Virus record (IMG/VR): IMGVR_UViG_3300043673_000021
Span: 1 to 64,000 of that record
Reading direction: 5' to 3' (one strand)
Origin: a virus
Length of the DNA stretch: 64,000 nucleotides
Under the pieces are notes generated by a model. The model had not been told where the DNA came from, ran no database searches, and saw only the letters and a program-made list of their open reading frames with translations. Shown here in pieces: positions 1 to 40,478 of this stretch (position 1 is its first letter; the number at the start of each line of letters is the position of its first letter). A program made the translations under genes and the position numbers.

Positions 1-77
1 CAGAGGCTTCCGCTTGCCGGACCGGTCTGACCGTACATCATTGCGACGCTCAAGAGCGTCAGTATTAGTTTGTTCAT
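1..77 (-). CDS. Signal-peptide-bearing protein, truncated by the window edge (MNKLILTLLSVAMMYGQTGPASGSL...)
   Basis: Read by hand: ATG at 77 preceded by GAGGA; the N-terminus closely resembles that of 1201..1662 (MNKLLLLALLGVATLYGQ). Confidence 0.7.
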   Translation of the reverse strand, partial: MNKLILTLLSVAMMYGQTGPASGSL

Positions 78-94
78 TCGATTTCCTCGTGGGG

Positions 95-1213
95 TTAGAA
101 GATCACCGCTGGGACACCGTTATTACTAGCGATTGCGGTCAGCGAAGACATTGCAGGCGGGCTGTTCTGGTTGGTGTAATTTTGGAGTATCCAGTCACCG
201 GACCTAGCGACACTGGATACTCGCGCTTCGTCGTTGACAGAATTAGCAAACTCTGAAAAACCGTCATCCATGACGAAGAAATTGAAACTGCCATCGATAA
301 AATACCCTCGCGCGGTTGGACCTGCTACCAGCGCCCCATTGACGTAAGTAAGTTGATTTGTTCCGTCATAGGTGAATGCCACGTGATACCAGGTACCCGT
401 GGATATCGTTATGCTGGGCACTACTCCCTGCCCTGCGCAGCCTACGAGAAATGACGTATTGTGAGTCCATATAGCGACACCCGAACAGGTCACGCTTATG
501 TTTCCCCAAGACATACTTCCTCTGAAATTGCTATCTAATACAGTTGGATTGATCCATATTTCTCCCGTCATTGGGTTGTTTGCACTTGGGAAAGTACTGC
601 CGTTTACCGCACGGGTTCGGCATGGGTTTGGAGAATTGAGGGTTATCGCTCCATCTACTTTACCGGCAGTAGAGATGCAAGGGTGGCCGGAAACATTGTC
701 ATCTGTCATGTTATGAGCGTTGGCACTGAAATCTTGAAGACCTAGAGTGGTTCCGTCTGGAAAATGGTAGGCCGCAACCGTATTCGAATCCCACTCTGAT
801 CCCTGCGCGCCGCCTTGGTATGTACTGACGGCGGAATTTCCTACGCAGACCGTCGGCACAATCGCCGCTCCAGTTGTCAGCGTCATCTTTGCCCAGCCTT
901 TGATTATTCCGGTGCTGGCTCCCTCGTAATACTCAATTCCCCAACTGAAACCCGTTATCGTCGTGCATGTTGAGTCGGAAGTGAGGGCGAAGTCGGCAGG
1001 GACAGTGACACCGACGTGCGTGACAGTATTCTGAATCGCGCCGCCGTTGCCCACTGTTTTAAGCAGCGCGTTCGTCGCAGTGAAGGCACCCGTCCAGTTG
1101 GTCAACGTGGTCGATCCAGAAGCTGCTGGGAAGGTTACGGCCCCCTTGTACGCCCATCCGCCAAATACGGGGCCAGCCAGAGCGAGGAGCAATAGCAGCT
1201 TCACTTCGCGCAT
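95..1213 (-). CDS. Secreted LamG/concanavalin A-like lectin-domain protein with DUF2341-like N-terminal region
   Basis: Hydrophobic leader LLLLLALAGPVFG; LamG motifs 'GTWYHVAFTYDGTNQLTYVNG' and 'DEARVSSVARSGDWI..NY.NQ'. Confidence 0.75.
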   Translation of the reverse strand: MREVKLLLLLALAGPVFGGWAYKGAVTFPAASGSTTLTNWTGAFTATNALLKTVGNGGAIQNTVTHVGVTVPADFALTSDSTCTTITGFSWGIEYYEGASTGIIKGWAKMTLTTGAAIVPTVCVGNSAVSTYQGGAQGSEWDSNTVAAYHFPDGTTLGLQDFSANAHNMTDDNVSGHPCISTAGKVDGAITLNSPNPCRTRAVNGSTFPSANNPMTGEIWINPTVLDSNFRGSMSWGNISVTCSGVAIWTHNTSFLVGCAGQGVVPSITISTGTWYHVAFTYDGTNQLTYVNGALVAGPTARGYFIDGSFNFFVMDDGFSEFANSVNDEARVSSVARSGDWILQNYTNQNSPPAMSSLTAIASNNGVPAVIF

Positions 1214-1662
1214 CCTAGAGTGAATTCAACATGTCCAGCCGTTCCGCCATAAGCGAACAAGTTAACGCCGAACGTGTCATAGGCCGCGATTGCGGTGCCC
1301 GAAAGGTCGCTTAGCGTCGTGCTGTGAACTCTGGTTCCAGTGCTCAGACCGAACCCCGAAGTGCTGAGGGTTTGCGTAACAGTTGGGAGCACCGTCCCAC
1401 CATCCGCGATGCGCCAGAGTTTTACCGTCGCGGTCGAATCCGAAGAGATTACCCAGTCCGTAATCGCGCAGGCGTAAGGAACAGTTACGTACACGGTTGT
1501 CCCAGCAACAGCATTAGCCCCAACAAACATAACCGCGAAACCACCAGATCGCATACTGACACCGGATGATGGCGTGGATGTCTGCACGACGGTACTAGGT
1601 GCAGCACTCTGGCCGTACAGAGTCGCGACGCCCAAGAGCGCCAACAGCAAAAGTTTGTTCAT
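1201..1662 (-). CDS. Secreted beta-rich hypothetical protein
   Basis: Signal peptide MNKLLLLALLGVATLYG; T/S/G/V-rich mature part with two Cys; AAGGA RBS. Confidence 0.75.
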   Translation of the reverse strand: MNKLLLLALLGVATLYGQSAAPSTVVQTSTPSSGVSMRSGGFAVMFVGANAVAGTTVYVTVPYACAITDWVISSDSTATVKLWRIADGGTVLPTVTQTLSTSGFGLSTGTRVHSTTLSDLSGTAIAAYDTFGVNLFAYGGTAGHVEFTLGCAK

Positions 1663-1671
1663 GGTTTTCCT

Positions 1672-2277
1672 TTACCCCTTGTGGCGGAGTGCGGCCATTG
1701 AGATCAATTCGTGAAGGAGAAAGGCAAACGCGCCGATTAGCGCACTGATGACGACGCCAACCTTCTGCATCACCGTCCATCCGCCCGACGCCTTATTCTT
1801 GAAAGCGTCGCGTTCTTGCTCAATGACTTGCACTGATTTCTCAACCGTATCCACGCGCTCGTCAAGGGAGTCAAAGCGGTTGTCGACATTCTCTGGGCTC
1901 AGTTCGTCGTTCCCGATCTTTTCCTTGTCCATCCGGTCTAGGTCGATCTTCTGTTGCGCCCTGTACTCGGCTAATTCGAGTCTGGAACTCGCCCTCCCAT
2001 CGGCTATCGAGACCGTCAACCGCGCCTCAATCGCTTGGATCTCCAGCCGTGAAGCCTTATCTCCCTCAACGCGATCGACCTTGCGCGAGAGGTCTTCCAT
2101 CTGGGTTCGCATGTGAACCATATCCTGACGCAACCCGATTACGGTTTCGTTTACGCCGTTGATGGCTTGCAGGATCTCTACCTTGTCGTCCATGGGCATG
2201 CGGTTTGATCTTGCTGGCATTTGAGTGAGCCCCCTTGGCTCTGGGAAATCTAAGGCAATCTCTGCTGCCATAAACAC
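1672..2277 (-). CDS. Coiled-coil protein with C-terminal transmembrane helix (lysis-associated, holin- or spanin-like)
   Basis: Heptad-rich region followed by VGVVISALIGAFAFLL; directly downstream of the endolysin. Confidence 0.55.
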   Translation of the reverse strand: MFMAAEIALDFPEPRGLTQMPARSNRMPMDDKVEILQAINGVNETVIGLRQDMVHMRTQMEDLSRKVDRVEGDKASRLEIQAIEARLTVSIADGRASSRLELAEYRAQQKIDLDRMDKEKIGNDELSPENVDNRFDSLDERVDTVEKSVQVIEQERDAFKNKASGGWTVMQKVGVVISALIGAFAFLLHELISMAALRHKG

Positions 2278-2296
2278 TCCTGTTTTGGTTAGGCTG

Positions 2297-2884
2297 TCAG
2301 GAAACGATTGCGTTCGGCAATGCGCCGTCGCACAGGTTACTCGCCTCAGTTATGGCGTGTTGAATATTCTGCTGGTGGGCGATGGAAAGCAGTAGATCCG
2401 CGTACCCGCCACCTGTCGCATACCCGGCTTGCGCGATCCCGCGCAGTAGACCGTCCGCGTCTTTCGTTGCCTGATATTGCTTCCATGCTTGGCGATAGCG
2501 GGAGTTCCCTAGTATGAAAGCGATGTAGGCCGCCACTGATTCATCGAAGCTCGCATACTGGGCAAACCAGCAGGACATGTGATATCTAGTGATGCCATTG
2601 CCCAGCGGATCACAGCGGGTCACTGTGTTCCGCTCATCGTCGCGCATGGAATGAAAGCCAGCAGAGGCCATATCTTCCGTCGTCGGGCAGAGTTTCGCGG
2701 GCCCCTGCTCGGGGGCGCGCTTGATTCCCCAATAATTGAAGTCGCCAGTGACCTTCTGTCCCCACGAGGACTCAATGGCGAATTGGCTCAGGAGCACGAC
2801 CGGCGGATAGCCAGTTAGCTTCTCTGCCTTCACGGCCGCGATGGCCATTCCCCTTAAGTGTTCGTCTGTTTCGTAGGTATACAT
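2297..2884 (-). CDS. Endolysin, GH73 glucosaminidase (FlgJ-like)
   Basis: 'SQFAIESSWG' (catalytic Glu), 'NYWGIK', 'FAQYASFDES' and 'AGYAT' motifs. Confidence 0.85.
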   Translation of the reverse strand: MYTYETDEHLRGMAIAAVKAEKLTGYPPVVLLSQFAIESSWGQKVTGDFNYWGIKRAPEQGPAKLCPTTEDMASAGFHSMRDDERNTVTRCDPLGNGITRYHMSCWFAQYASFDESVAAYIAFILGNSRYRQAWKQYQATKDADGLLRGIAQAGYATGGGYADLLLSIAHQQNIQHAITEASNLCDGALPNAIVS

Positions 2885-2895
2885 GGGCTCTCACC

Positions 2896-3042
2896 TCAGA
2901 TATTGCCCCTGAGAAGCATGATGATCAAGACAATCAGGAGGATGGTTCCGAGGCTTATCCCACCGGTTCCGTAGGATGTTCCCCACTGATGGAAACCTAC
3001 TCCGCCAAACAAAAGGATGAGAATGATGATTAGCAGTAACAT
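2896..3042 (-). CDS. Small two-TM membrane protein, DUF3309-like (48 aa, MLLLIIILILLFGGVGFHQWGTSYGTGGISLGTILLIVLIIMLLRGNI); holin candidate
   Basis: Translated by hand (below the ORF-track size cutoff); AAGGGG RBS; immediately upstream of the endolysin. Confidence 0.75.
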   Translation of the reverse strand: MLLLIIILILLFGGVGFHQWGTSYGTGGISLGTILLIVLIIMLLRGNI

Positions 3043-3071
3043 GTTAACCCCTTTATTTTTTAATATCTACT

Positions 3072-3380
3072 TCAGAAGTCCCAGTCTGGAATCTCGACCG
3101 TGGTCCCCTTGAGCGAGTGCCAGCAGTCCTGAAGAAACTGAATCTTGCCATCGGTCACAAAGGAGTGGCAGCGGAATTCAGGGAAGCTGGCATTGCAGAG
3201 AATCGAAGGAGTGAACGTTGGCGCATCCATCGATCCGTTCCAGCCCCATACATGATCGCCGCCCTGCCCTGTGTTCGGTGCCGCGACGGAGATTCCATGC
3301 GAGCATTCACAGCCGGGGCAGAAAAAACAATACTGCGCGGGAAGCTTGTCACCGTTCATGCGGTGGAGCTTAATCCCCAT
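3072..3380 (-). CDS. DUF6527-like Cys/His metal-binding protein
   Basis: CPGC..H...W.WNG...PTFTPSI...CHSFVTDGKIQFL.DC.H pattern. Confidence 0.7.
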   Translation of the reverse strand: MGIKLHRMNGDKLPAQYCFFCPGCECSHGISVAAPNTGQGGDHVWGWNGSMDAPTFTPSILCNASFPEFRCHSFVTDGKIQFLQDCWHSLKGTTVEIPDWDF

Positions 3381-3382
3381 AT

Positions 3383-3652
3383 TCAGCGGATACCCTCTCC
3401 AAGAACAGGCTCACCGTTCTTGATATGCACCACGCGACCGTGTTCGATGCGGAAGAAAAACGTCCATTCTTGGCATGCGCGACACTCCGTCCAATAGCCC
3501 GAATCCGGGAAGGAGTTAGCGTAAGCGTTGTTGAATACCTGCACCGTTGCGCACTTCTCGCAAAACGCCAACGTAACTGGAGCTCCATGGATAGTACTAG
3601 GGGAGACTGAAGTCAGTTTGGGACGCGCACCAGTTGGAATTTCAATAATCAT
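3383..3652 (-). CDS. Zn-ribbon protein
   Basis: CEKC...CRAC; GGAGG RBS upstream. Confidence 0.6.
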   Translation of the reverse strand: MIIEIPTGARPKLTSVSPSTIHGAPVTLAFCEKCATVQVFNNAYANSFPDSGYWTECRACQEWTFFFRIEHGRVVHIKNGEPVLGEGIR

Positions 3653-3733
3653 ACTTTCCCTTTCCTCCAGACGCGACCGCCGGCAACCCCTTTTTGAATT
3701 TGGTTTAGGGCGGTCGGGTCCGAAGTCCCGCTG

Positions 3734-4009
3734 TTAGGCAGAAGCTGTGCTGCGAATGTGAGTAAGCGCGTCGGTGAGCCGTTGGCCGATTCCGCTCTCG
3801 ACCTTTCCGCCGAACATCCCGTGCCCGTGGACGGTCAATTCGCCACCGGCGTAGGAGAAATCGGCGCTCCAGTTGATGGGATGCGTGCCCTTGATATTGC
3901 CGTTCGTGGGCCCGATGTTGGATAGGGCGATCCCTTCGCTCGGGTTGAGGGTTTGGAGTGCGGTTTCGATCTGCTGGAACTCTGCAGGCGTCATTGGTAC
4001 TTGGATCAT
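3734..4009 (-). CDS. Hypothetical protein
   Basis: ATGA overlap with the upstream gene. Confidence 0.6.
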   Translation of the reverse strand: MIQVPMTPAEFQQIETALQTLNPSEGIALSNIGPTNGNIKGTHPINWSADFSYAGGELTVHGHGMFGGKVESGIGQRLTDALTHIRSTASA

Positions 4010-4200
4010 GGGATTTTGCGTCTCACTTTCTTTGAATGGTGAAATGGTCTTGCTACTGTCCGCCCGGTCGCACGCAGGCCGCGGATGATCAGCTTTGGGT
4101 GATCCGCTATTCCAACGACCACCGCGACGACACCCGCGAGAGAGGGCGGAGGGACGGCGGATAGCGGGAGAGCTAAGAGGAGGGCGAGGGCAAGCTTCAT
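4006..4200 (-). CDS. Small membrane or signal-peptide protein with a basic tail
   Basis: MKLALALLLALPLSA...; ATG at 4200 overlaps the upstream stop. Confidence 0.55.
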   Translation of the reverse strand: MKLALALLLALPLSAVPPPSLAGVVAVVVGIADHPKLIIRGLRATGRTVARPFHHSKKVRRKIP

Positions 4201-4490
4201 TCCGGCGGCCAAGCTTCCATCGTTGAGCCCAGACGCCTAGCCTCAGTTCGCCAGCGCTCCATCTCGACAGTCATATCTTCGCGTTGCTTTACGAGCCACT
4301 CAAGGGCTTGCTCTACACTGGCAGCGCCTTCACCTGCGGCTTGGCGTGCCACCTCCAGCAACTGCCGAGCCCAAGCCCGGGTTTCGATTTCAGCCGCGGC
4401 GCTAATTTCTCCGGTGTCCGGCGACACCGACACAAGGCCGGATTCACCATGACCGACCATTCGCGGAAAGTGAGAGATTTCATCTTTCAT
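4197..4490 (-). CDS. Hypothetical protein (MKDEISHF...)
   Basis: Probable start at 4490 coupled (ATGA) to the stop of 4487..4810; the longer track ORF overlaps the neighbouring gene. Confidence 0.55.
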   Translation of the reverse strand: MKDEISHFPRMVGHGESGLVSVSPDTGEISAAAEIETRAWARQLLEVARQAAGEGAASVEQALEWLVKQREDMTVEMERWRTEARRLGSTMEAWPPE

Positions 4491-4810
4491 GACTGCTTTT
4501 CCTCTGTTGTCTGAACGGTTTCCTTGACGAGTGCCGGCGGATTCTGCTGCAGGCTGGTGGTTTCCTTGGTGGTAACGGTGATGATCGCCGGGAGTGGGTG
4601 CTGTTTCAGGTAGGCGAAGAAAGGCGTCAATCCGCTGGCGACAAACGTGATTACCATCGCTATAAATAACGGGCGAGGATTGCTGAGGTTGAACTTCTCC
4701 GGATCGATCACAGAAACTGTAGCTCCAGTTGACAGCGCGGTGGACCCGCCGCCGATAAAGGCAGAGCCGAGCCCGTACAGCCATAGCCTCCACTCGTAGC
4801 GGGTCTTCAT
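4487..4810 (-). CDS. Putative holin (two TM segments)
   Basis: Two hydrophobic stretches and a charged C-terminus; lies in the lysis region. Confidence 0.5.
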   Translation of the reverse strand: MKTRYEWRLWLYGLGSAFIGGGSTALSTGATVSVIDPEKFNLSNPRPLFIAMVITFVASGLTPFFAYLKQHPLPAIITVTTKETTSLQQNPPALVKETVQTTEEKQS

Positions 4811-4818
4811 GGTGTAGG

Positions 4819-5181
4819 TTATGCCTTAGGTGCGGCGACCACCGCTGCGTTCGCCGGGCTGACCGCAGCTTTAACCGCCGGGATGATCGTCTTGATATCC
4901 GCGATCAACGAGGCGTCGAGGGTGATACTGAGTCCTCCGGAGTTCGCGGCAGAACCCGCATCTTCGATGGCCTTGATGACGGCTCCCAGCACTGCTTCGC
5001 TGGCTCGTTCGATATTGGCCAACTGCGGGCTAACAAGGCCGCTAATGGCCTCAATGGTGGGCGCGCTGGCCTCCACTTTCTGGAGCGCCGGGAGGATCTT
5101 GCTTTCGAGAAACGATCCGGATTTTTTTAGGTCGCTGATGGCGGTCGCGTAAACGTGTTCGAGGGTGAGGAGTAGGCTCAT
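4819..5181 (-). CDS. Ala-rich amphipathic hypothetical protein
   Basis: Coupled ORF with AAGGA RBS. Confidence 0.6.
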   Translation of the reverse strand: MSLLLTLEHVYATAISDLKKSGSFLESKILPALQKVEASAPTIEAISGLVSPQLANIERASEAVLGAVIKAIEDAGSAANSGGLSITLDASLIADIKTIIPAVKAAVSPANAAVVAAPKA

Positions 5182-5552
5182 TTGTTTTTTCCTTTGTTGT
5201 TAGAGGTTTTTGACGTCGTTTCCTTGGCCTGTAGTTGCTCGACAATCGGGTCTGCCCAAATGTGATCAACGGTAGTTAATTTAGGCCAAGAGTTGAGAAG
5301 TTCTTGCAGGGCGTTCGCGTCGGCGGATTCGAGTTCAACTGATCGCTCGCCGAAGTCGATAGTCGGGGCCATGTAGGTCCGCAATGTTTCGCTGACTTGC
5401 TGGACTTTAATCTGTGGGCTCTCCGCATCATCGAACCTCACGAGGTTTAGAACACGGAGAAAAGGTGCGGTGCGGCCGAGTGGACCCTCCTGCACAGATA
5501 GCAAATCGCTGAGTTTCAGGCGCTGGGTGAAGTTTAGTTCGATGGATATCAT
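5178..5552 (-). CDS. Hypothetical protein, possible tail-fibre assembly chaperone
   Basis: Position two genes downstream of the tail spike; size. Confidence 0.45.
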   Translation of the reverse strand: MISIELNFTQRLKLSDLLSVQEGPLGRTAPFLRVLNLVRFDDAESPQIKVQQVSETLRTYMAPTIDFGERSVELESADANALQELLNSWPKLTTVDHIWADPIVEQLQAKETTSKTSNNKGKNK

Positions 5553-5558
5553 GGCGTT

Positions 5559-6383
5559 TTAGTGATCCCAATAAGTTCGGTAGTCGTTGCCGCTGGCGTC
5601 AACCTCTGGCAGCGTGGTGCATAAAATCTGCATCTCCACATTTGTGTTGATCGCCGCTCCACCCGTGACAGGGCCAGCATTCAGCAGTAACGCATTGGTA
5701 GGATTGCCAGTGCTAGATATAGAACTGCTGCTGTAAATTGGCACTGGTTTTAGGGATGGCGATGTAGGATTGTAAACAGAACTGCCGCTGTACCATGGCA
5801 GGTAATTTGGTGGTTCGTAGTCTATTGTTCCGGGAGATCCTAGCAGCCTGTACTGATCGAATACGTTGGGTATTCCGGTAGGGTTTCCCCTGATGAATCC
5901 AATGTTTGTCAGTGACACCGATCCGGTCACGGGCACGTGAGTGATCAGCAAGTACTTCGTGTAGACGCTGTATATAATCCGCACCGTGGCATTGATCGCG
6001 TGGTTATTGAACAGGATGGCGTTAAAATGCGTGCTGTCTGTTACCGTTGCCTTGACTACCTCTTGCAAGGCCGGATTCTCCGCATCGATAAGTAGGAAGG
6101 TCGCGCCAAATGTAATGAGGTTATTCAAAAACTGAGTAGTCGGAACAAGAACATCTTGCGGCGAGCTCCCGCCGGTCACTGTAGCCAAGATTGGCATCGC
6201 AATGCCCGCTCCTCCTGGGTCAAGCGTCAGGGCAGCAGGTTCAATCCTCTGCACCCTTACAGAGCCGAATGCGCAAGGTCCCATGTTAACGGTGTTTATA
6301 ATAAGCGGTGAAGATGTTTCTCCAGTAAACGATGAGCTTGCGAGACCCCCAACACAACTTCGTATTGATAAAGTTTCTGCCAT
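5559..6383 (-). CDS. Putative minor tail or virion protein
   Basis: Beta-rich T/S/G composition; follows the tail spike. Confidence 0.55.
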   Translation of the reverse strand: MAETLSIRSCVGGLASSSFTGETSSPLIINTVNMGPCAFGSVRVQRIEPAALTLDPGGAGIAMPILATVTGGSSPQDVLVPTTQFLNNLITFGATFLLIDAENPALQEVVKATVTDSTHFNAILFNNHAINATVRIIYSVYTKYLLITHVPVTGSVSLTNIGFIRGNPTGIPNVFDQYRLLGSPGTIDYEPPNYLPWYSGSSVYNPTSPSLKPVPIYSSSSISSTGNPTNALLLNAGPVTGGAAINTNVEMQILCTTLPEVDASGNDYRTYWDH

Positions 6384-6395
6384 GTTTGTACCTTC

Positions 6396-9300
6396 CTAAG
6401 TTACTATTCCGCCAATCGCATTTAATGCTGTCGTGTTAGGCCCACCGAACGTAGTGGCTACAAAGAATGTCTGTGTTCTTCCAGGTGCTCCACCGTGGAT
6501 GTTATAGCCAGTTGCCTCAATGCCGGCAGTGAAAACCGCACCTGTTGATTGGATCTGCCCATTCACTTCAAGCGCTCGTGAAATAGGAACACCACCAATA
6601 CCAACAAGACCGCTTGCAGTTACGTATATTCTAGTAAGGTTGTTGGATCTAATTCCGAATGTATGCGCTGTGGCCGAGCCCATGAAGGCCATGTTATTGA
6701 AGTTATCGCATCCTGAATACGCGGTCATACTTCCAGCACTGTTTATTGCAACATAGTAAGCGTTGCCACCAGAGCCACTGGCAGAGTTACCGTGGATCTC
6801 AACCTTACTTCCAAGATCTAACAGTGGCGGAGCGGTGGGGTTAGCAATAAATACGCAGCCGCCAAACTCTCCACCACCATTAACCGCCACTGCATTGAAG
6901 GCGAAAGATGTAAGTTGTAGAGTATTGGCAAACACACCGCCGTTTGTGAAGATGGCGTTAAAGGCTGAAGATGAGGCATTGATCGACACAGCAGCGACGC
7001 CGCCAAACGGCAAACTAACTGCGTTGGATGCCAAGCTGTTAGATACAAATCCGTCGCCTGATTGTACAAACCCCTGTGCGCATGAGATGCTTGGCTGTCC
7101 AACGGAGCCGTTAACAGATATGAATCCCTGTTTCGTGAAGTAAATACCGCCAGGATTGTGAAAAGTATCGGCACTGAAGAACAGAGCACCTTCATTTGGG
7201 TTGCCAGATCCGATAGAAAATATTCTCGCAATGTGAGGATGGCCGGTCGATGACGTTGATGTGAAATCCAAGAACTGCGATCCACCGCCGACCACAGACG
7301 GTACAAGTCCTAATTTTATGCCGACTAGCGCAGAGAAGTCATCACAGTTTATTCCGTAGTCATAATAACCTGGATTACCTGATGTGGCGGCGATACGAAC
7401 ACCTGCGTTAGCATAACCCGGTGTTTCTGTGTACGGCGAGTTCGGCATGATCCATTTTGTCCCTGACCACCCTATGTTTCCAGGTTGCTGGAACGGCTGA
7501 CCAAATGCTGAATCTGTCAGCCATGCGATGTTGACATTGATACCCGCAAACGTTGTGAGGTGATGGGAGATATTAACGTCCATCTCAATACCGTTGCAAG
7601 TGCCAGCCACTCTGGTGGATGGGTTTTCGTTGATGTAATCACGAACAAGAAGGTTTGCGCCCCAGACTGCTGCGCCGGTAACCGCTGCAACAGCAAAGCC
7701 ACTTAGGGCCACTGAGCCAACGAAGCTACTACTTGCGGGTGCGTTATTAACCACCATCGCAACGAGCGCATCAGACTCCCAACTGGTAACACTAGATGGG
7801 GTTATCATGCCGAAGGTTCCGCCCGCTTCACGCACAGTAAAGGGGCCACCCGATGGATGGAAGAAATATTCCAGTGTCTGGGTGTTCGTGACCGTAGGCC
7901 CAACCAGTCCTACGACAGCAGACTGATCATGCACGCCGTCAAACGCACCGGCACAGAGCGACTGGAATGGCTGGAGCTTCGAAGAGCCACCGGTATAGGA
8001 GGATGAGCCAAGAGTCAGTTGCGGCGACACGCTTATGGGGCCAAGGTAATGCCCTGTGGAATCAATGATTACGCCGACTCCGTCAATCGAATAGGAGTGT
8101 CCGGTAAAGTTTCGCGAACTGTCGATGATGCCAGAACCGAGGATCGAATATGCCACGGAAGTCGTGGTCCCGTCGCCCGTTACGGCGAACAAGTCTGAGC
8201 CCGCGACGTTTAGCGTGAGTACGCGGGTTAGTGGGTTGGAATTTGCGACCTTTACCAGCAACCCATTCGCATTCGTGGCATTGTCAGTATTTTCCACGCC
8301 CCACATATAGCCAAGGGCGCTGTTCCGCCAGGTAATCCCCGAGCCGTGCGTTGTGCCAACCGGGGTCCCTTGGGCATCCAGGATGTTGGCTGCGCTATTG
8401 GTGAGCAGGTCCCATGACGTGCTGGGATTTCCCACGGTAACCGACCGACCGAATAGATTGGCCGAACTGTCGATCACGAGGGAGGGAGTGGCCCCGGAGA
8501 TAACAAGTGATGTTCCCGTAAATCCCCGGGCATTGCTGATAACCCCGTTGCTCCCGACCGAATAGGCTTGGGCGGTCGCAATCCCATCTGCGGTTACCGC
8601 GAATAGATCCGATCCGCCGGCATTTAGCGTCAGGAGCCTTGTCAGTGGATTTGTATTCGCTACTTTAACGATCAGGCCATTGGAGTTGGTGACGTTATTG
8701 GTGTTCTCGACTCCCCACATGTAGCCCGTCGCCGAGTTGCGCCACGTGACACCAAAGCCATGGGTAGTTCCGATCGGAGATCCTTGCGAGTCGATAACAT
8801 TTACCGCGCTGTTGCTGAGGAGATCCCACGGCGTGGATGTGGCAATACCGACCGCCCTAAAGATACCGTTACCCGCGTTGTCGATGATGAGATTCTGTGG
8901 AGCCCCTCCAGTGACCGCACCGTAGAGGGTGACCGAATTCCCGGTGAAGTTGCGGACGTTGTCGATCGCGCCGTTGCCAGAGATGGTGAGGGACGGAATC
9001 AGGGTTGTTCTATCGGTAAATTGCGCGACTAACGTACCCTGCTGCAACCCGCGATCGGTCCATGTGATACCGCCGTCCGTCGTTGTTCCTCCCGTGTGGT
9101 TGAACGTCGGCAGTGAGCCGCCCGAATTACCCGACGCCTCGGTGACGGTCTGAATGTGGCTCGCGCCGTCGAGAATCGACTGCCCAACCTGCCAAGCGAA
9201 GCTTCCCACCCAAGAGCCAAGTGGGACGTTTTTATATAAATTGGCGCTAGCGTCAGTGCCGCCCACTAGCGTGTGCTCAGTCTGGAGGACATGCTCGCAT

Positions 9301-18468: not shown

Positions 18469-21400
18469 CTAAAACCTTGTGTGTTGATCCCGGGCGAATC
18501 GCCGCAGGCTGGCGTAGGACTCGCGGCCAATATCGCTCGCCGAAGCGCCGCTCTTCACGTTGTTGGTGACTCCGCCGTAGTTGTGGGTAACATTACTGGG
18601 GCGGTGCTGCCCTGGATTTGCGCCACCGCTGGCGATCATTTGTTGAATTCCAAGACTGATCGGGCGCGGAAGTATCATTTCTTCCGGATGAGCAAGCACC
18701 AACGAATTCGCGTTTGGCAGGATAGCGCCACGCTCTGCCGATAGAGCCGCGAACCCCATGCCCTCCGCGTAATAAACAGCGGCCATCGCTGGAGCAACGG
18801 GAGGGTCGATTGCGCTGTAGAAAGCAAATGCTCCGGCGGCAGCCAGCCCGGCATCTGAAGTTGCCATCACGACATTCGCGGCAGTGTGGACCGCTGTTGC
18901 CGCGGTCGTCGCAGCCGTGGTATCGGTGACTTGCTGAGTATGGAAGATCTTAGACACAAGCCCCATCAGAATGTGCTCTTCTACCCACTTCTCGCCCATG
19001 CCAATGACGTAGTTAATTGCCTGCTGCGCAAGGTTCTGGTACATCTGGACCATGCCAGCCCCGAAGGACTTACCATGGAGCAACATGTCGCCGAAGCTCT
19101 TTTCAAAACCTTGGCTGATGGTGGAAAACGCCTGCTGCCAAGGTTGAACGATGGCCTTGCTGAGGGCGTTCTGGTCAGTCTTCAACTTGAGGTCGTTCGC
19201 CTGAATGACGGCGGTCAGTTTGTTCGACTCCGCCATCGCCTTCTCGTAATCCTGAGCGTCGCCGGTCAGTGAAGCCTTGTCGGCAGCGGTATTGAACTTC
19301 TCAGTCTGCTCCTGCTGCTGGACCTTTCCCTTTTGCTGGTCGAAGCCTATTTGCTGGCGAGCATCCCCGACGCGCTCTTGCGGGGTGGTCGGGAATAGCC
19401 GAGTTTCCTGCTGCCCCTTGGCCCCGAGTTCCTGTAAGTTGATCGCGTGAATGGATGCGGCGGCATCGGCTGCTGACTTCAGGTTGGCGAGTTCGACATT
19501 GACCTTGCGCAGTTGATCGGCGAGATCCTTGCCCGCCTTCTCCCATTCCTTGAACGCATAAGCTTCGGCCTTAGAGCCAGAGTCCGCACTCAGCGCCGCT
19601 TGCGCCCAGAATTCCTTCTGCTCCGCGAGCGAGATCTTGCCGTTATCGTTAATCGCCTCAAACTGGCGTTGGAGAGCCGTTTTGGTGGCTTCTTCAGCCT
19701 CTGCCCACGCCTCACGAGTGACGGCTGGAATCTTCTTCATCACCTCTTCGTAGGCGATACCGGCGGCGAGAGATCCACCGACCACGTCATTCGCTAGCTT
19801 GTCGGCCTGCCCCGTGAGGAAAGACAGTTCACCGCGCTTTCCGCCCGAAGTTTGCGCATCCTCGCTTCCGGCGTTGATGGCCTCCATGATGCGCTTGGCA
19901 CCATCGCGCGCCTCTTTTTCGCGGAGGCTGTATTCCTGGCGGTCGAGAGCCTGATATTCGTGACCAAGGGTGCGCTTGATCTCGCGGACTCGATCGGCGT
20001 AATCCGCCTCGACCTTGAGCCTACCCTCCCAGAAAGATATCTCTTCCTGAATCGTTAGTTGATGGTTGGCCTGTAGGTCGGCGAATGCTTCCTGGTCGGC
20101 CTTACGGAGGACGTCTTCGGCCTTCTTGTTCGCGTTCGGATCTCCAACTTTCGGGAATGGCTTGTCTCCACCTTCTGGTTTCGCTTGCGGCTTTGGTTTC
20201 CAGAGAGCATCGAGAAACTTTTGGTTATCGGCTACATCGGACGCGACCGTTTTCTTGTATTCTGCCCATTCGATCTTCGCGAATGCCATCCCGGCCTTGA
20301 TGTCAGCCGCGGCTTTTCCCCACTTATTGTTAGCCGCATCCTGCATCGCATTTCCGAGACTCTCTACAACGTCTCCCGCTGCCAGCCAGCCCGCGATCAT
20401 GGAATCGGTGACGACCTTGATATCCAGCGCGAATCCGCTCATAACGGATGCGGCGACTTTGAATGCGCCGGTGACATAGGGCAGCACATCCACACCGACT
20501 GTGGTAAATGCCGCCCCAAGCTCGTGCTCGACGCGCGTCAACTCTCGCGCAGGGTCGATGCCAGCCGCTTGGGCAGCGGCGAGATCCGTACTGTCGACCA
20601 TCGCCTTCCGAAGGGCGTCCGATCCCTCAGAAAGCGGACCCTCTATGTTTTTGATCCCCATCCCGACCAATCGGGACGCAGTCTCAAGGGCCTCGAACTT
20701 GTCGCTTGTGTTGTGGATGACGTCCGAGATTCTCAGCAGTGCTTCGATCGGATCGGTCATGCCCCCGATTCCGAAACGTCGGATCTCGTCTGCGGCTACT
20801 TTGCTCCCACGCTGCGCCTGCTCCATAGCCCTGCCGAGGCGCAATAAGATCTGGGGAACCTGATCCCCGTTGCCGCCGAGCAGGTTCATCGCATCTTCGA
20901 GTTGCGCTATCTTCTCGGCGGCGATACCGGACGCGTCGGCGAATGCGCCCAGGTCTACCTCTGCTTGCCGGAACTTGTCGAGTTCGTCAAGCCCGCGTCG
21001 CACCAGCGCCAGTAGGGCGTAGATTCGGAATATCGGGATGGAGGCACTCGCGGACGCTGCGCCGAGTTGCTGGATCGGAGGCACCGCGGCGTTAGCGGCA
21101 GCACCCGCGGCGGCGGCCCCGGCCATGATTCCACCCATGGCGGTGGGTACCGTAGCGGCAGCGGCAGCCATTGCCGCGCCCATCTGGGTAGCGGACATTG
21201 CAGCCTGCGCGGTCGATGCCGCCATGTTGCTGGCGTAAGAAGCGCCGATAGCCTGAGCCTGCCCGAGTTGGCCCGTTGCGGCGGCGGCTTGTTTGACCGA
21301 AATGCCGTATGCGGCCAACTGAATTTCAAGCGCCTCGATGGTGGCACGCAGGGATTGCGCCTGCCCGTCCGTCGCGGCATAGACCGAGGAAATCTGCCCG

Positions 21401-21609
21401 AGGTTCGACTGCGCCGCTGCCCGTGTGTCGTCGCCGGCCTTGTCCAAATCCTTATGGGCTTGCTTCAGGCGAGCGAGCGAGGCCGCCGACTCCACGGAGG
21501 TCGAGTTGTAGTTGGAACGCGCCTCCGCGAGTGCGGAAATGAGCGCATCGAGCCCCCCGGGAATCTGGGAGGCATCGATTATCGCGCCGATTCTTATTTC
21601 GTTGGCCAT
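18469..21609 (-). CDS. Tape measure protein
   Basis: 1046 aa, Ala-rich and helical; follows the tail chaperones; C-terminal 'AHPEEMILP' motif. Confidence 0.9.
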   Translation of the reverse strand: MANEIRIGAIIDASQIPGGLDALISALAEARSNYNSTSVESAASLARLKQAHKDLDKAGDDTRAAAQSNLGQISSVYAATDGQAQSLRATIEALEIQLAAYGISVKQAAAATGQLGQAQAIGASYASNMAASTAQAAMSATQMGAAMAAAAATVPTAMGGIMAGAAAAGAAANAAVPPIQQLGAASASASIPIFRIYALLALVRRGLDELDKFRQAEVDLGAFADASGIAAEKIAQLEDAMNLLGGNGDQVPQILLRLGRAMEQAQRGSKVAADEIRRFGIGGMTDPIEALLRISDVIHNTSDKFEALETASRLVGMGIKNIEGPLSEGSDALRKAMVDSTDLAAAQAAGIDPARELTRVEHELGAAFTTVGVDVLPYVTGAFKVAASVMSGFALDIKVVTDSMIAGWLAAGDVVESLGNAMQDAANNKWGKAAADIKAGMAFAKIEWAEYKKTVASDVADNQKFLDALWKPKPQAKPEGGDKPFPKVGDPNANKKAEDVLRKADQEAFADLQANHQLTIQEEISFWEGRLKVEADYADRVREIKRTLGHEYQALDRQEYSLREKEARDGAKRIMEAINAGSEDAQTSGGKRGELSFLTGQADKLANDVVGGSLAAGIAYEEVMKKIPAVTREAWAEAEEATKTALQRQFEAINDNGKISLAEQKEFWAQAALSADSGSKAEAYAFKEWEKAGKDLADQLRKVNVELANLKSAADAAASIHAINLQELGAKGQQETRLFPTTPQERVGDARQQIGFDQQKGKVQQQEQTEKFNTAADKASLTGDAQDYEKAMAESNKLTAVIQANDLKLKTDQNALSKAIVQPWQQAFSTISQGFEKSFGDMLLHGKSFGAGMVQMYQNLAQQAINYVIGMGEKWVEEHILMGLVSKIFHTQQVTDTTAATTAATAVHTAANVVMATSDAGLAAAGAFAFYSAIDPPVAPAMAAVYYAEGMGFAALSAERGAILPNANSLVLAHPEEMILPRPISLGIQQMIASGGANPGQHRPSNVTHNYGGVTNNVKSGASASDIGRESYASLRRFARDQHTRF

Positions 21610-39734: not shown

Positions 39735-40478
39735 ATGAGACGACTACCGATCAAGACACAGACATCAGGCGCTCTGCACGTTGGCTATGCACGCGTCTCC
39801 ACTCACCAGCAGGCCAGCGAGGGTCTATCCTTGGATGCCCAGCGCTCACGGCTTGAGTCCGCAGCTACCCTGCGAGGTGTAACGCTTGAAATCTTTTCAG
39901 ATGAGGAATCGGGCAAGGACACGAACAGACCTCATTTCCTCTCTCTCCTCACCAAGGTGAAAGCTGGACAGATAGCCTCCGTGACGGTCTGTAAGCTCGA
40001 CAGGTTGACGCGTAGCGTACGTGATCTTCTGGACCTCATGACGCTATTCGAAGCGCACGGTGTGGCATTTATCAGCCTTGCGGAAACCATTGACACCACT
40101 ACCGCTATGGGCCGATTCTTTACCGTCGTACTGGGTGCGATTGCTGAGCTTGAGCGCGGCCTGATCAGTGATCGGACTACCGCAGTGTTGCGCCACAAGC
40201 GGGCATCAGGACTGGCTTGGAATCATGCACCGTACGGCTTCGACAAGTCTGACGGCCGTCTGATGCTGAACGAGTCCGAACTCGCCGTGGCTCACCGCAT
40301 CCTGCAGGCTCGAGTTGATGGTCAATCGTTCGGCGCGATCGCTAAGCAGTTGAATGCAGAGAGTGTGCCGGCGAAAATGGGCGGCCCCTGGTACCCGTCG
40401 ACCGTGTCCTTTGTGTGCGGCAATCGTGATCTGTATGTTAGTGTGTCAAATTTACCACAGCCTAGTGTGGCTGTTTGA
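39735..40478 (+). CDS. Serine recombinase (resolvase catalytic domain plus recombinase DNA-binding domain)
   Basis: 'GYARVST..Q', 'SGK...RP', 'KLDRLTRS', 'AELER..I..RT', 'PYGF', 'IA..LN......GG.W..STV'. Confidence 0.92.
   Translation: MRRLPIKTQTSGALHVGYARVSTHQQASEGLSLDAQRSRLESAATLRGVTLEIFSDEESGKDTNRPHFLSLLTKVKAGQIASVTVCKLDRLTRSVRDLLDLMTLFEAHGVAFISLAETIDTTTAMGRFFTVVLGAIAELERGLISDRTTAVLRHKRASGLAWNHAPYGFDKSDGRLMLNESELAVAHRILQARVDGQSFGAIAKQLNAESVPAKMGGPWYPSTVSFVCGNRDLYVSVSNLPQPSVAV

Follow-up and report, generated by a model that had tools for sequence, protein, structure and literature searches.

Three consecutive open reading frames (ORFs) with Sec-type signal peptides occupy positions 1-1662, on the minus strand and directly downstream of the endolysin cassette, in a 64,000-nucleotide stretch of viral DNA (the window) that forms the first 64 kb of the 97,625-bp IMG/VR record IMGVR_UViG_3300043673_000021. 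The two complete genes encode a 153-aa protein with the predicted fold of a phage fibre tip and a two-domain lectin with a LamG jelly roll. We consider it highly probable that they represent real export of fibre-derived, glycan-binding modules, and we propose more tentatively that the exported proteins have a free role, apart from the virion. That the proteins are exported, are expressed late and bind glycans is inferred from the sequence, as is their biological role. An earlier note on this DNA had pointed to three consecutive genes with signal peptides, and all three ORFs and their leaders were recovered with our own heuristic.

The 153-aa gene (1201..1662, minus strand) comprises a signal peptide at 1612-1662, a 17-aa Ser/Thr/Pro linker and a jelly-roll "fibre-tip" domain at ~1207-1557; its leader is MNKLLLLALLGVATLYG, with predicted cleavage before Q. 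The lectin, termed LamG-1 (95..1213, minus strand), consists of a signal peptide at ~1160-1213, a DUF2341-like N-terminal domain at ~719-1156 and a LamG jelly roll at ~152-790, and its leader is M(REV)KLLLLLALAGPVFG, with predicted cleavage before G. The third gene (1..77, minus strand; translation MNKLILTLLSVAMMYGQ...) is represented by its 5' end of 25 codons, cut by the record start, with the leader MNKLILTLLSVAMMYG before Q. All three leaders start with a basic n-region and end in a c-region of small residues, with a hydrophobic, uncharged core of 10-12 residues in between. Our heuristic was positive for 10 of the 136 ORFs obtained by naive ORF calling over the whole record, including all five complete genes of the signal-bearing block described below (hypergeometric P = 7e-7). 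The MNKL leaders of the 153-aa gene and the truncated gene, whose likeness had already been remarked upon in the earlier note, agree in 12 of 18 residues and in ~78% of the first 57 nt (1606-1662 in the former), on the strength of which the two 5' ends are taken as paralogous. The richness in Thr, Ser and Gly was likewise borne out, with a combined content of 37% and 32% in the mature parts of the two complete proteins, compared to 23% genome-wide; these proteins have two and six cysteines, respectively.

The start of the lectin can be read in two ways, giving 372 residues from ATG 1213 or 369 residues from GTG 1204. The GTG overlaps the upstream TGA as GTGA, and reading from it gives MKLLLLL.... 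A junction of the form [A/G]TGA between lectin start and upstream stop is found in this genome and in five further loci (L077, L078, L079, L081 and L087 in our numbering), which makes GTG 1204 the most likely true start. The same overlap implies translational coupling of the tip-domain and lectin genes.

The jelly-roll domain of the 153-aa protein spans 115 residues and holds a conserved Cys65/Cys151 pair. A word-indexed search with this protein returned almost no relatives, and an exhaustive HMMER search returned 1031, which are 150-1800 aa long and in nearly all cases align with residues 36-152 at their extreme C-terminus. Among the longer ones, Pfam domains are absent save an occasional beta-helix, and the PHROGs that they match bear the names "virion structural protein", "tail protein" and "pectin lyase". 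The AlphaFold2 (AF2) model, built from 45 sequences with a mean predicted local distance difference test score (pLDDT) of 86, displays a jelly roll of eight strands, ahead of which the leader and linker are disordered. Structural similarity search against BFVD matched this fold to the C-termini of uncultured Caudovirales proteins that bear collagen repeats, Mtd_N domains or the name "tail fiber", and the nearest ESM Atlas clusters are 85-95% viral, one of them being named "structural protein". The matches in the PDB are generic jelly rolls only (a cyanophage decoration protein, the HFTV1 turret, CBM36 and CBM4), and the tip-domain profile found no sequence relative there. Since both its relatives and its fold correspond to the C-termini of fibre-like, mostly viral proteins, the 153-aa protein is, by homology and model, a stand-alone fibre-tip-type domain behind a signal peptide. 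Beyond its linker it has neither a shaft nor an attachment region, which argues against its being a fibre on its own. A stand-alone tip domain of 135 aa that lacks a signal is encoded in the phage-like metagenome contig L090.

PHROGs offers scarcely any coverage of the tip-domain family or of the lectin family, and tblastn of both proteins against 50,697 GenBank phage records gave no match. A contig search with a narrower tip-domain alignment yielded no viral-contig loci and 21 metagenome loci. In the 301 Acidobacteriota genomes searched the domain was found once, as the terminal part of a leader-bearing 1369-aa protein whose gene neighbourhood is not of phage type, and it was not found in the MAG (metagenome-assembled genome) that holds L072; we therefore rejected the reading of a common bacterial secreted family. 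A sorting domain of the type IX secretion system was also rejected, as no Pfam match (Por_Secre_tail, CHU_C) was obtained for the 153-aa protein or ten longer relatives, and the domain is present in signal-less phage proteins too. A 154-aa signal protein in L022, considered as a possible relative, has no detectable relationship to the 153-aa protein.

The LamG assignment of the second protein, also made in the earlier note, is well founded. The domain matches PF13385 (Laminin_G_3) with E = 4.9e-13 and 49.9 bits against a cut-off of 27.6, in addition to PDB profile matches, and the AF2 model has a pLDDT of 82 and a predicted template modelling score (pTM) of 0.84. VIA-align superposed residues 142-354 onto the arabinan-binding domain 4 of AbnA (5HON) with Z = 23.8 and a root-mean-square deviation of 2.4 A over 195 residues; the same residues superpose on sialidase CBM40 and pentraxins, and the domain aligns with the distal tailspike domains of Pan3 and CBA120 TSP2 at Z = 17.2 and 13.8. 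Sequence identity to these structures is 10-19%. Matches to the lectin-like subdomain of clostridial neurotoxin binding domains reflect the same generic jelly roll and imply nothing further.

The lectin family, of ~360 aa, has a conserved N-terminal domain, a variable LamG body and a conserved C-terminal helix plus strand. Among 57 homologues, several full-length ones carry a precomputed PF10102 (DUF2341) annotation; the N-terminal domain of the lectin in this record gave no Pfam match to DUF2341 at E <= 0.1, and signal-less relatives open with the motif ...ITIDHTK.... The lectin begins at its first domain, with no N-terminal attachment region or shaft. A scan of IMG/VR for the family gave 59 loci. 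At ~30 of them the domain forms the very N-terminus (M-A-[FY]-x-Y..ITIDHTK) and the gene comes after fibre-like ones in tail modules, ~16 have a Sec-like leader of 16-25 residues placed exactly ahead of the domain start, and at several both domains are fused to the end of a large protein.

The two genes recur as neighbours. A tip-domain gene is directly followed by a lectin gene in this genome, in the viral loci L032, L070 and L051, and in about ten metagenome loci; the earlier note had advised a search for syntenic clusters in related phages. Both members carry leaders in L032 and L070, and both are leaderless in L051. The closest relatives of the tip domain are 51-70% identical to it; the top ones, in L077 and L078 (68-70%), lie on contigs of less than 3 kb that display the block only. 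At 51-62% identity, L080-L087 are clearly chromosomal metagenome loci, where a triad is found of a 350-aa protein ending in a tip domain, the lectin and a protein of 1280-1320 aa, all leader-bearing. These triads are flanked by genes for asparagine synthase-type amidotransferase (AsnB), glycosyltransferase family 4 (GT4), Wzy_C, glycosyltransferase family 2 (GT2) and acyltransferase-3, along with UDP-glucose dehydrogenase, aspartate kinase and cytidylate kinase. By its gene neighbourhoods, the tip-domain and lectin pair is thus a conserved unit that occurs both in phages, where its members may have or lack signals, and in bacterial polysaccharide-synthesis loci.

The third proteins of the triads (L080:10852-14715, L082:11417-15385, L083:11629-15495, L084:4194-8147 and L087:4854-8696) share 62-85% identity with one another, contain 28-29 cysteines and have no Pfam match. 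They always follow the tip-domain/lectin pair in the polysaccharide loci, and their profile found no match in the phage described here.

The bacterial members form one tight clade nested among viral sequences on the lectin tree. Given this nesting and the rarity of the tip domain among the Acidobacteriota genomes, the family is, as judged from its distribution, carried chiefly by phages, while at least one lineage has become established in a surface-polysaccharide locus. In the 62-kb viral contig L018, a divergent run of glycosyltransferase-like genes (1024-7492), two of which were confirmed as GT4 and GT2, adjoins a four-gene signal-bearing block. It is mainly these glycosyltransferase genes and the bacterial polysaccharide loci that suggest surface polysaccharide as the ligand.

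The presence of a leader varies within both families and is coupled to cysteine content. On the lectin tree, leader state requires 14 parsimony changes, at least seven of which are forced by well-supported branches, and the lectin of this record falls in an all-leader clade of 17 members. Of 48 leader-bearing lectins, 31 have the Cys83/Cys123 pair, which is absent from all 51 leaderless ones (P = 9e-14) and is found in at least five separate clades. Among the 138 complete tip-domain matches listed, ~100 are leader-bearing, and the pair within VP[FY]AC...L.C is present in 96/100 of these, compared to 28/38 leaderless ones (Fisher P = 4e-4). Neighbouring genes follow the same pattern: 14 of 26 neighbours of leader-bearing lectins have a leader, against 3 of 91 at leaderless ones (P = 1e-8), and runs of large, Cys-rich, leader-bearing genes are seen in L018, L019, L021-23, L042, L053 and L070. 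Across dozens of homologues the leaders conserve their form and not their sequence, and end exactly at the domain start. Since the disulfide-type lectin pair appears only together with a leader, as an oxidising compartment predicts, we read the leaders as real export signals.

At the slot after a related J-like tail-tip gene, a leader-bearing protein of ~545 aa is found in L098-L100 and L106, and a leaderless protein of 360-466 aa in L101-L104 and L107, so an export switch is also visible at this fibre slot.

The virus is a soil phage, and its host is probably a member of the Acidobacteriota. The only match of the lectin family in GTDB is an Acidobacteriota MAG, one lectin homologue is labelled Bryobacteraceae by its source, and the G+C content is 56% both in the phage and in the Acidobacteriota genome G260. 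The leaders of the tip-domain family display [AGSTC]Q at the c-region in 79 of 99 cases, compared to a background of 14%. Within 400 kb of G260 (C1:120001-520000; L109-L128), 38 of 55 leader-like proteins do so, compared to 17% background. The habit of Gln at +1, the "Q-rule", is known from Bacteroidetes, in an analysis that left Acidobacteria outside (PMC5837995), and by this crude test on one genome it seems to extend to Acidobacteriota.

These properties bear on a reading without export, in which the hydrophobic N-termini are uncleaved anchors or arose by chance, and the proteins would serve in the cytoplasm as ordinary parts of tail fibres or as their chaperones. The leader calls do all come from one home-made heuristic, and the -3 residue of the 153-aa leader is Leu (LYG before Q), which is not the commonest choice. 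Nevertheless, leaders that retain their form without their sequence, stop exactly where the domain starts, go together with cysteine pairs and with leaders on neighbouring genes, and obey the host-like +1 Gln habit make this reading very improbable, and uphold the export signals proposed in the earlier note. A spanin reading was rejected as well, as neither the 153-aa nor the 372-aa leader has a lipobox Cys at +1 and the mature parts are folded jelly-roll domains.

The signal-bearing genes do not end at the record start. A 155-nt stretch within the C-terminal part of the lectin gene (127..281, minus strand) recurs with 154/155 identical nt at 97471-97625, the last 155 nt of the record, as the 3' end of a lectin gene, and similarity to this far copy ends sharply to the left of position 127 (126/127). 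The recurrence points to a second lectin copy and an assembly break inside the repeat. Different genes follow the two copies: the truncated MNKLIL... ORF after the copy in the window, and, after the far copy, an 820-aa protein, a 362-aa protein that is the third with LamG (PF13385, E = 1.8e-12) and a 1525-aa protein, all with leaders. The signal-bearing block, as predicted from these ORFs, thus has at least seven genes. The repeat is most simply explained by a tandem cassette of small tip gene plus lectin in which the assembler broke, and the record is then probably not 80% complete but a nearly closed circle that lacks ~1.3 kb. Extension to the left, suggested in the earlier note as a way to count the cluster, gave no match in viral or metagenome contigs for exact 30-35-nt patterns from 1-77; it was the far end of the record that raised the count. 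The placement of these genes at the end of an operon, as the earlier note had it, does not hold, for the block continues at the other end of the record. Nor are they ordinary host genes flanking a prophage, given the block at both record ends and their tight coupling to the lysis genes.

All genes of interest are encoded on the minus strand. In the order of transcription, terminase, portal and capsid genes are followed by the tape measure gene (18469..21609) and a tail tip of the type found in gene transfer agents and phiJL001, with DUF2460, a hub that combines Gp84_N with BR0599 domains, and a Phage-tail_3 protein of 1209 aa. Next come a signal-less fibre or spike protein of 1640 aa, small genes, the DUF3309 protein, the endolysin, a coiled-coil protein and the three signal-peptide genes. 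The DUF3309 protein (2896..3042, minus strand; PF11752, E = 2.8e-5) is a 48-aa two-helix membrane protein and a holin candidate. The endolysin (2297..2884, minus strand) belongs to the N-acetylglucosaminidase family (PF01832 Glucosaminidase, E = 4.4e-18; phrog_3513 "endolysin", E = 1.6e-22), which agrees with the position just past lysis genes given in the earlier note; it has no close relatives in the viral contigs searched. The 201-aa coiled-coil protein (1672..2277, minus strand) possesses a C-terminal membrane helix and weak PHROG matches (phrog_1193 "hemolysin", E = 0.0016), and is a candidate lysis-associated, XhlA/"hemolysin"-like protein. Its stop lies 10 nt before the 153-aa gene, which in turn overlaps the lectin gene by 4 nt, and this tight packing against the lysis genes makes late co-expression of the block with them likely.

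Secreted cargo of prophages is classically located beside the lysis module, as in lambda bor and the staphylococcal and streptococcal exoproteins. The block could accordingly be lysogenic-conversion (moron-type) cargo, that is, secreted lectins expressed from the prophage that alter the surface or exopolysaccharide of the lysogen and thereby adhesion, matrix or phage exclusion. The phage is probably temperate, since it encodes a tyrosine-integrase domain (PF00589, E = 1e-15; 66414-66917 of the record, plus strand, outside the window) and a serine recombinase (39735..40478), and the bacterial counterparts of the pair are located in polysaccharide loci. Moreover, prophages of Porphyromonas gingivalis have genes with Q-rule signals (PMC10367356). 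Against such cargo, the 10-nt gap and the 4-nt overlap leave no space for a promoter of its own, although promoters inside upstream genes are possible, and promoter- and terminator-like consensus sites are no commoner than in shuffled sequence. The G+C content of positions 1-2000 (53.5%) does not deviate from the 50-60% found elsewhere, and similar blocks occur in many viral contigs of unassigned lifestyle. We regard lysogenic conversion as unlikely. No tRNA genes were found in the window or near the signal-bearing block, and a strong terminator-like hairpin, identified as a consensus match, lies ~630 nt after the 1525-aa gene. The 408-aa open frame that contains the tyrosine-integrase domain lies opposite a longer ORF on the minus strand, which was the one chosen by the naive ORF picker.

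We propose the following model for the exported proteins. The two complete genes would constitute one translationally coupled cassette, probably tandem-duplicated, that combines a free copy of a tail-fibre tip domain with a DUF2341-like/LamG lectin partner, both given Sec signals of host type. Transcribed with the lysis genes, this cassette would be the first part of the block of at least seven exported, Cys-paired proteins of fibre, lectin or spike type. The proteins would pass the inner membrane, have their leaders cleaved, form disulfides in the periplasm and be freed at lysis, whereupon they would act as soluble binders of host surface polysaccharide or receptor and most likely not as parts of the particle. 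A possible effect is that receptor or exopolysaccharide on the dying cell and its debris is masked or occupied, so that progeny would be spared and superinfection blocked; alternatively, the proteins might help with release from the matrix.

An alternative to free binders is a set of virion appendages, in which a host-recognition module is exported, disulfide-bonded in the periplasm and docked at lysis on particles built in the cytoplasm, with tip domain and lectin forming an adhesin complex that binds the particle fibre. Both families are derived from fibres, and their signal-less members reside in tail modules or are fused to large fibre-like proteins. The position right behind the J-like tail-tip gene is taken by a signal-bearing gene in L070, L098-L100 and L106, as would suit exported virion parts. 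The signal state is common to the whole block, and the cysteine pairing suggests selection for extracellular stability. The origin of both families and the occupation of this slot are the grounds on which we keep docking after lysis under consideration.

By contrast, a 153-aa protein without shaft or anchor is poorly suited to be an appendage, and this phage retains its leaderless tail-tip and fibre genes. The block lies beyond the endolysin, ~3-5 kb past the last tail-type gene, and is set apart from the tail genes by ~3 kb that the small genes and the lysis cassette occupy. Homologous pairs function in bacterial chromosomes, where there is no virion, and a literature search gave no description of such a route for a tailed phage. 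We consider appendages doubtful. It is these features of the proteins and loci, together with the frequent gain and loss of the leader, that make us favour a free role; repeated switching of the leader would fit a task performed after release, where the compartment occupied before lysis matters little. A broader form of the docking scheme, in which the last assembly step of many soil phages takes place outside the cell and recognition proteins routed through Sec join particles after lysis, appears to us quite unlikely.

Several points weigh against export of free binders. The Sec test is a crude heuristic of our own that looks for a basic n-region, an uncharged hydrophobic stretch (h-region) of 7-15 residues and small side chains at -3 and -1. 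The statistics on leaders, cysteines and neighbours ignore kinship and take the leader class from our own classifier, the lectin tree is a quick unrooted FastTree of 107 members with many weak deep branches, and the database homologues (P ids) were used as proteins alone. Signal-less homologues of both proteins occupy ordinary tail-fibre positions. Receptors on the outer surface are out of reach for a periplasmic protein before lysis, and receptor binders that leave the cell in free form along with the progeny could also impede the next round of infection.

Pairs of a fibre-tip gene and a downstream adhesin or chaperone gene are familiar from T4 gp37/gp38, lambda Stf/Tfa and Mu S/U. As in those systems, a gene ending in a tip is here followed by that of a smaller partner, and the unit is modular and exchanged between phages. 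The present pair differs in that the "fibre" is a tip domain by itself, that both genes have Sec signals and cysteine pairs, and that the putative partner, a DUF2341-like plus LamG lectin, does not resemble gp38 or Tfa. Phages also encode accessory proteins directed to the envelope, such as Lom and Bor of lambda, Llp of T5 and Cor of phi80 and N15, and Llp and Cor block the phage's own receptor. Like this block, these are Sec substrates encoded beside late genes; however, they are small outer-membrane proteins or lipoproteins unrelated to fibres, whereas the block is fibre-derived, comprises at least seven genes and has no lipobox. With carbohydrate-binding modules of the LamG/ConA-like kind, such as AbnA domain 4 (5HON) and sialidase CBM40, and with the distal domains of the Pan3 and CBA120 TSP2 tailspikes, the likeness of the lectin is one of fold.

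The earlier note had suggested that such a module may be undescribed. This is too strong, as secreted cargo past the lysis module is classical and phage genes with Q-rule signals are in print: the prophages of P. gingivalis carry such signal-peptide genes of unassigned function (Matrishin et al. 2023, PMC10367356). Those genes share with the present ones leaders of the Sec/signal peptidase I type with Gln at +1, read as an adaptation to host secretion, but they belong to another host phylum and were not connected with fibre or lectin domains, gene pairing or cysteine coupling. Exported tail-fibre-like proteins with signal peptides and variable C-terminal binding tips have been reported as the MAT fibres of Bdellovibrio (Caulton et al. 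2024, PMC10769870). MAT fibres are encoded by chromosomal genes of the predator and have trimeric beta-helix shafts, often with an S74 chaperone, and we found no sequence relation to them; their nearer analogue is the bacterial triad in L080-L087, not the phage genes. Our literature search found no paper on Sec-exported tail-fibre modules of tailed phages. New here are the conserved, coupled pair, the tip domain as a protein of its own, the repeated change of leader state on a tree, the coupling of the leader to cysteine pairs and the counterpart in bacterial polysaccharide loci.

Altogether, two families of the fibre toolkit appear to switch repeatedly between a cytoplasmic and an exported form, of which the exported one has a disulfide signature and neighbours that follow suit. 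If the proteins act as free binders, phages would have turned duplicates of their recognition domains into soluble tools, a parallel to the receptor interference caused by viral envelope proteins. In textbook tailed phages every part is built in the cytoplasm, and if the proteins are instead added to particles once the cell has lysed, the accepted view of how a large group of soil phages assembles would need revision. The link to bacterial polysaccharide loci may provide a handle on what soil phages of Acidobacteriota recognise, and many "lectin/glucanase" genes of soil viromes that are scored as metabolic helpers may belong to such modules.

Two further genes of the record were observed apart from the block. 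A DUF6527 protein (3072-3380 of the window; phrog_3362, E = 4e-32), encoded between the small late genes and the holin candidate, has a Cys-rich, zinc-ribbon-like N-terminus. In addition, a 182-aa leader-bearing protein (MKLTAALVVLASAS...CQSQ) is encoded on the plus strand at 84003-84551 of the record, outside the window and far from the block.

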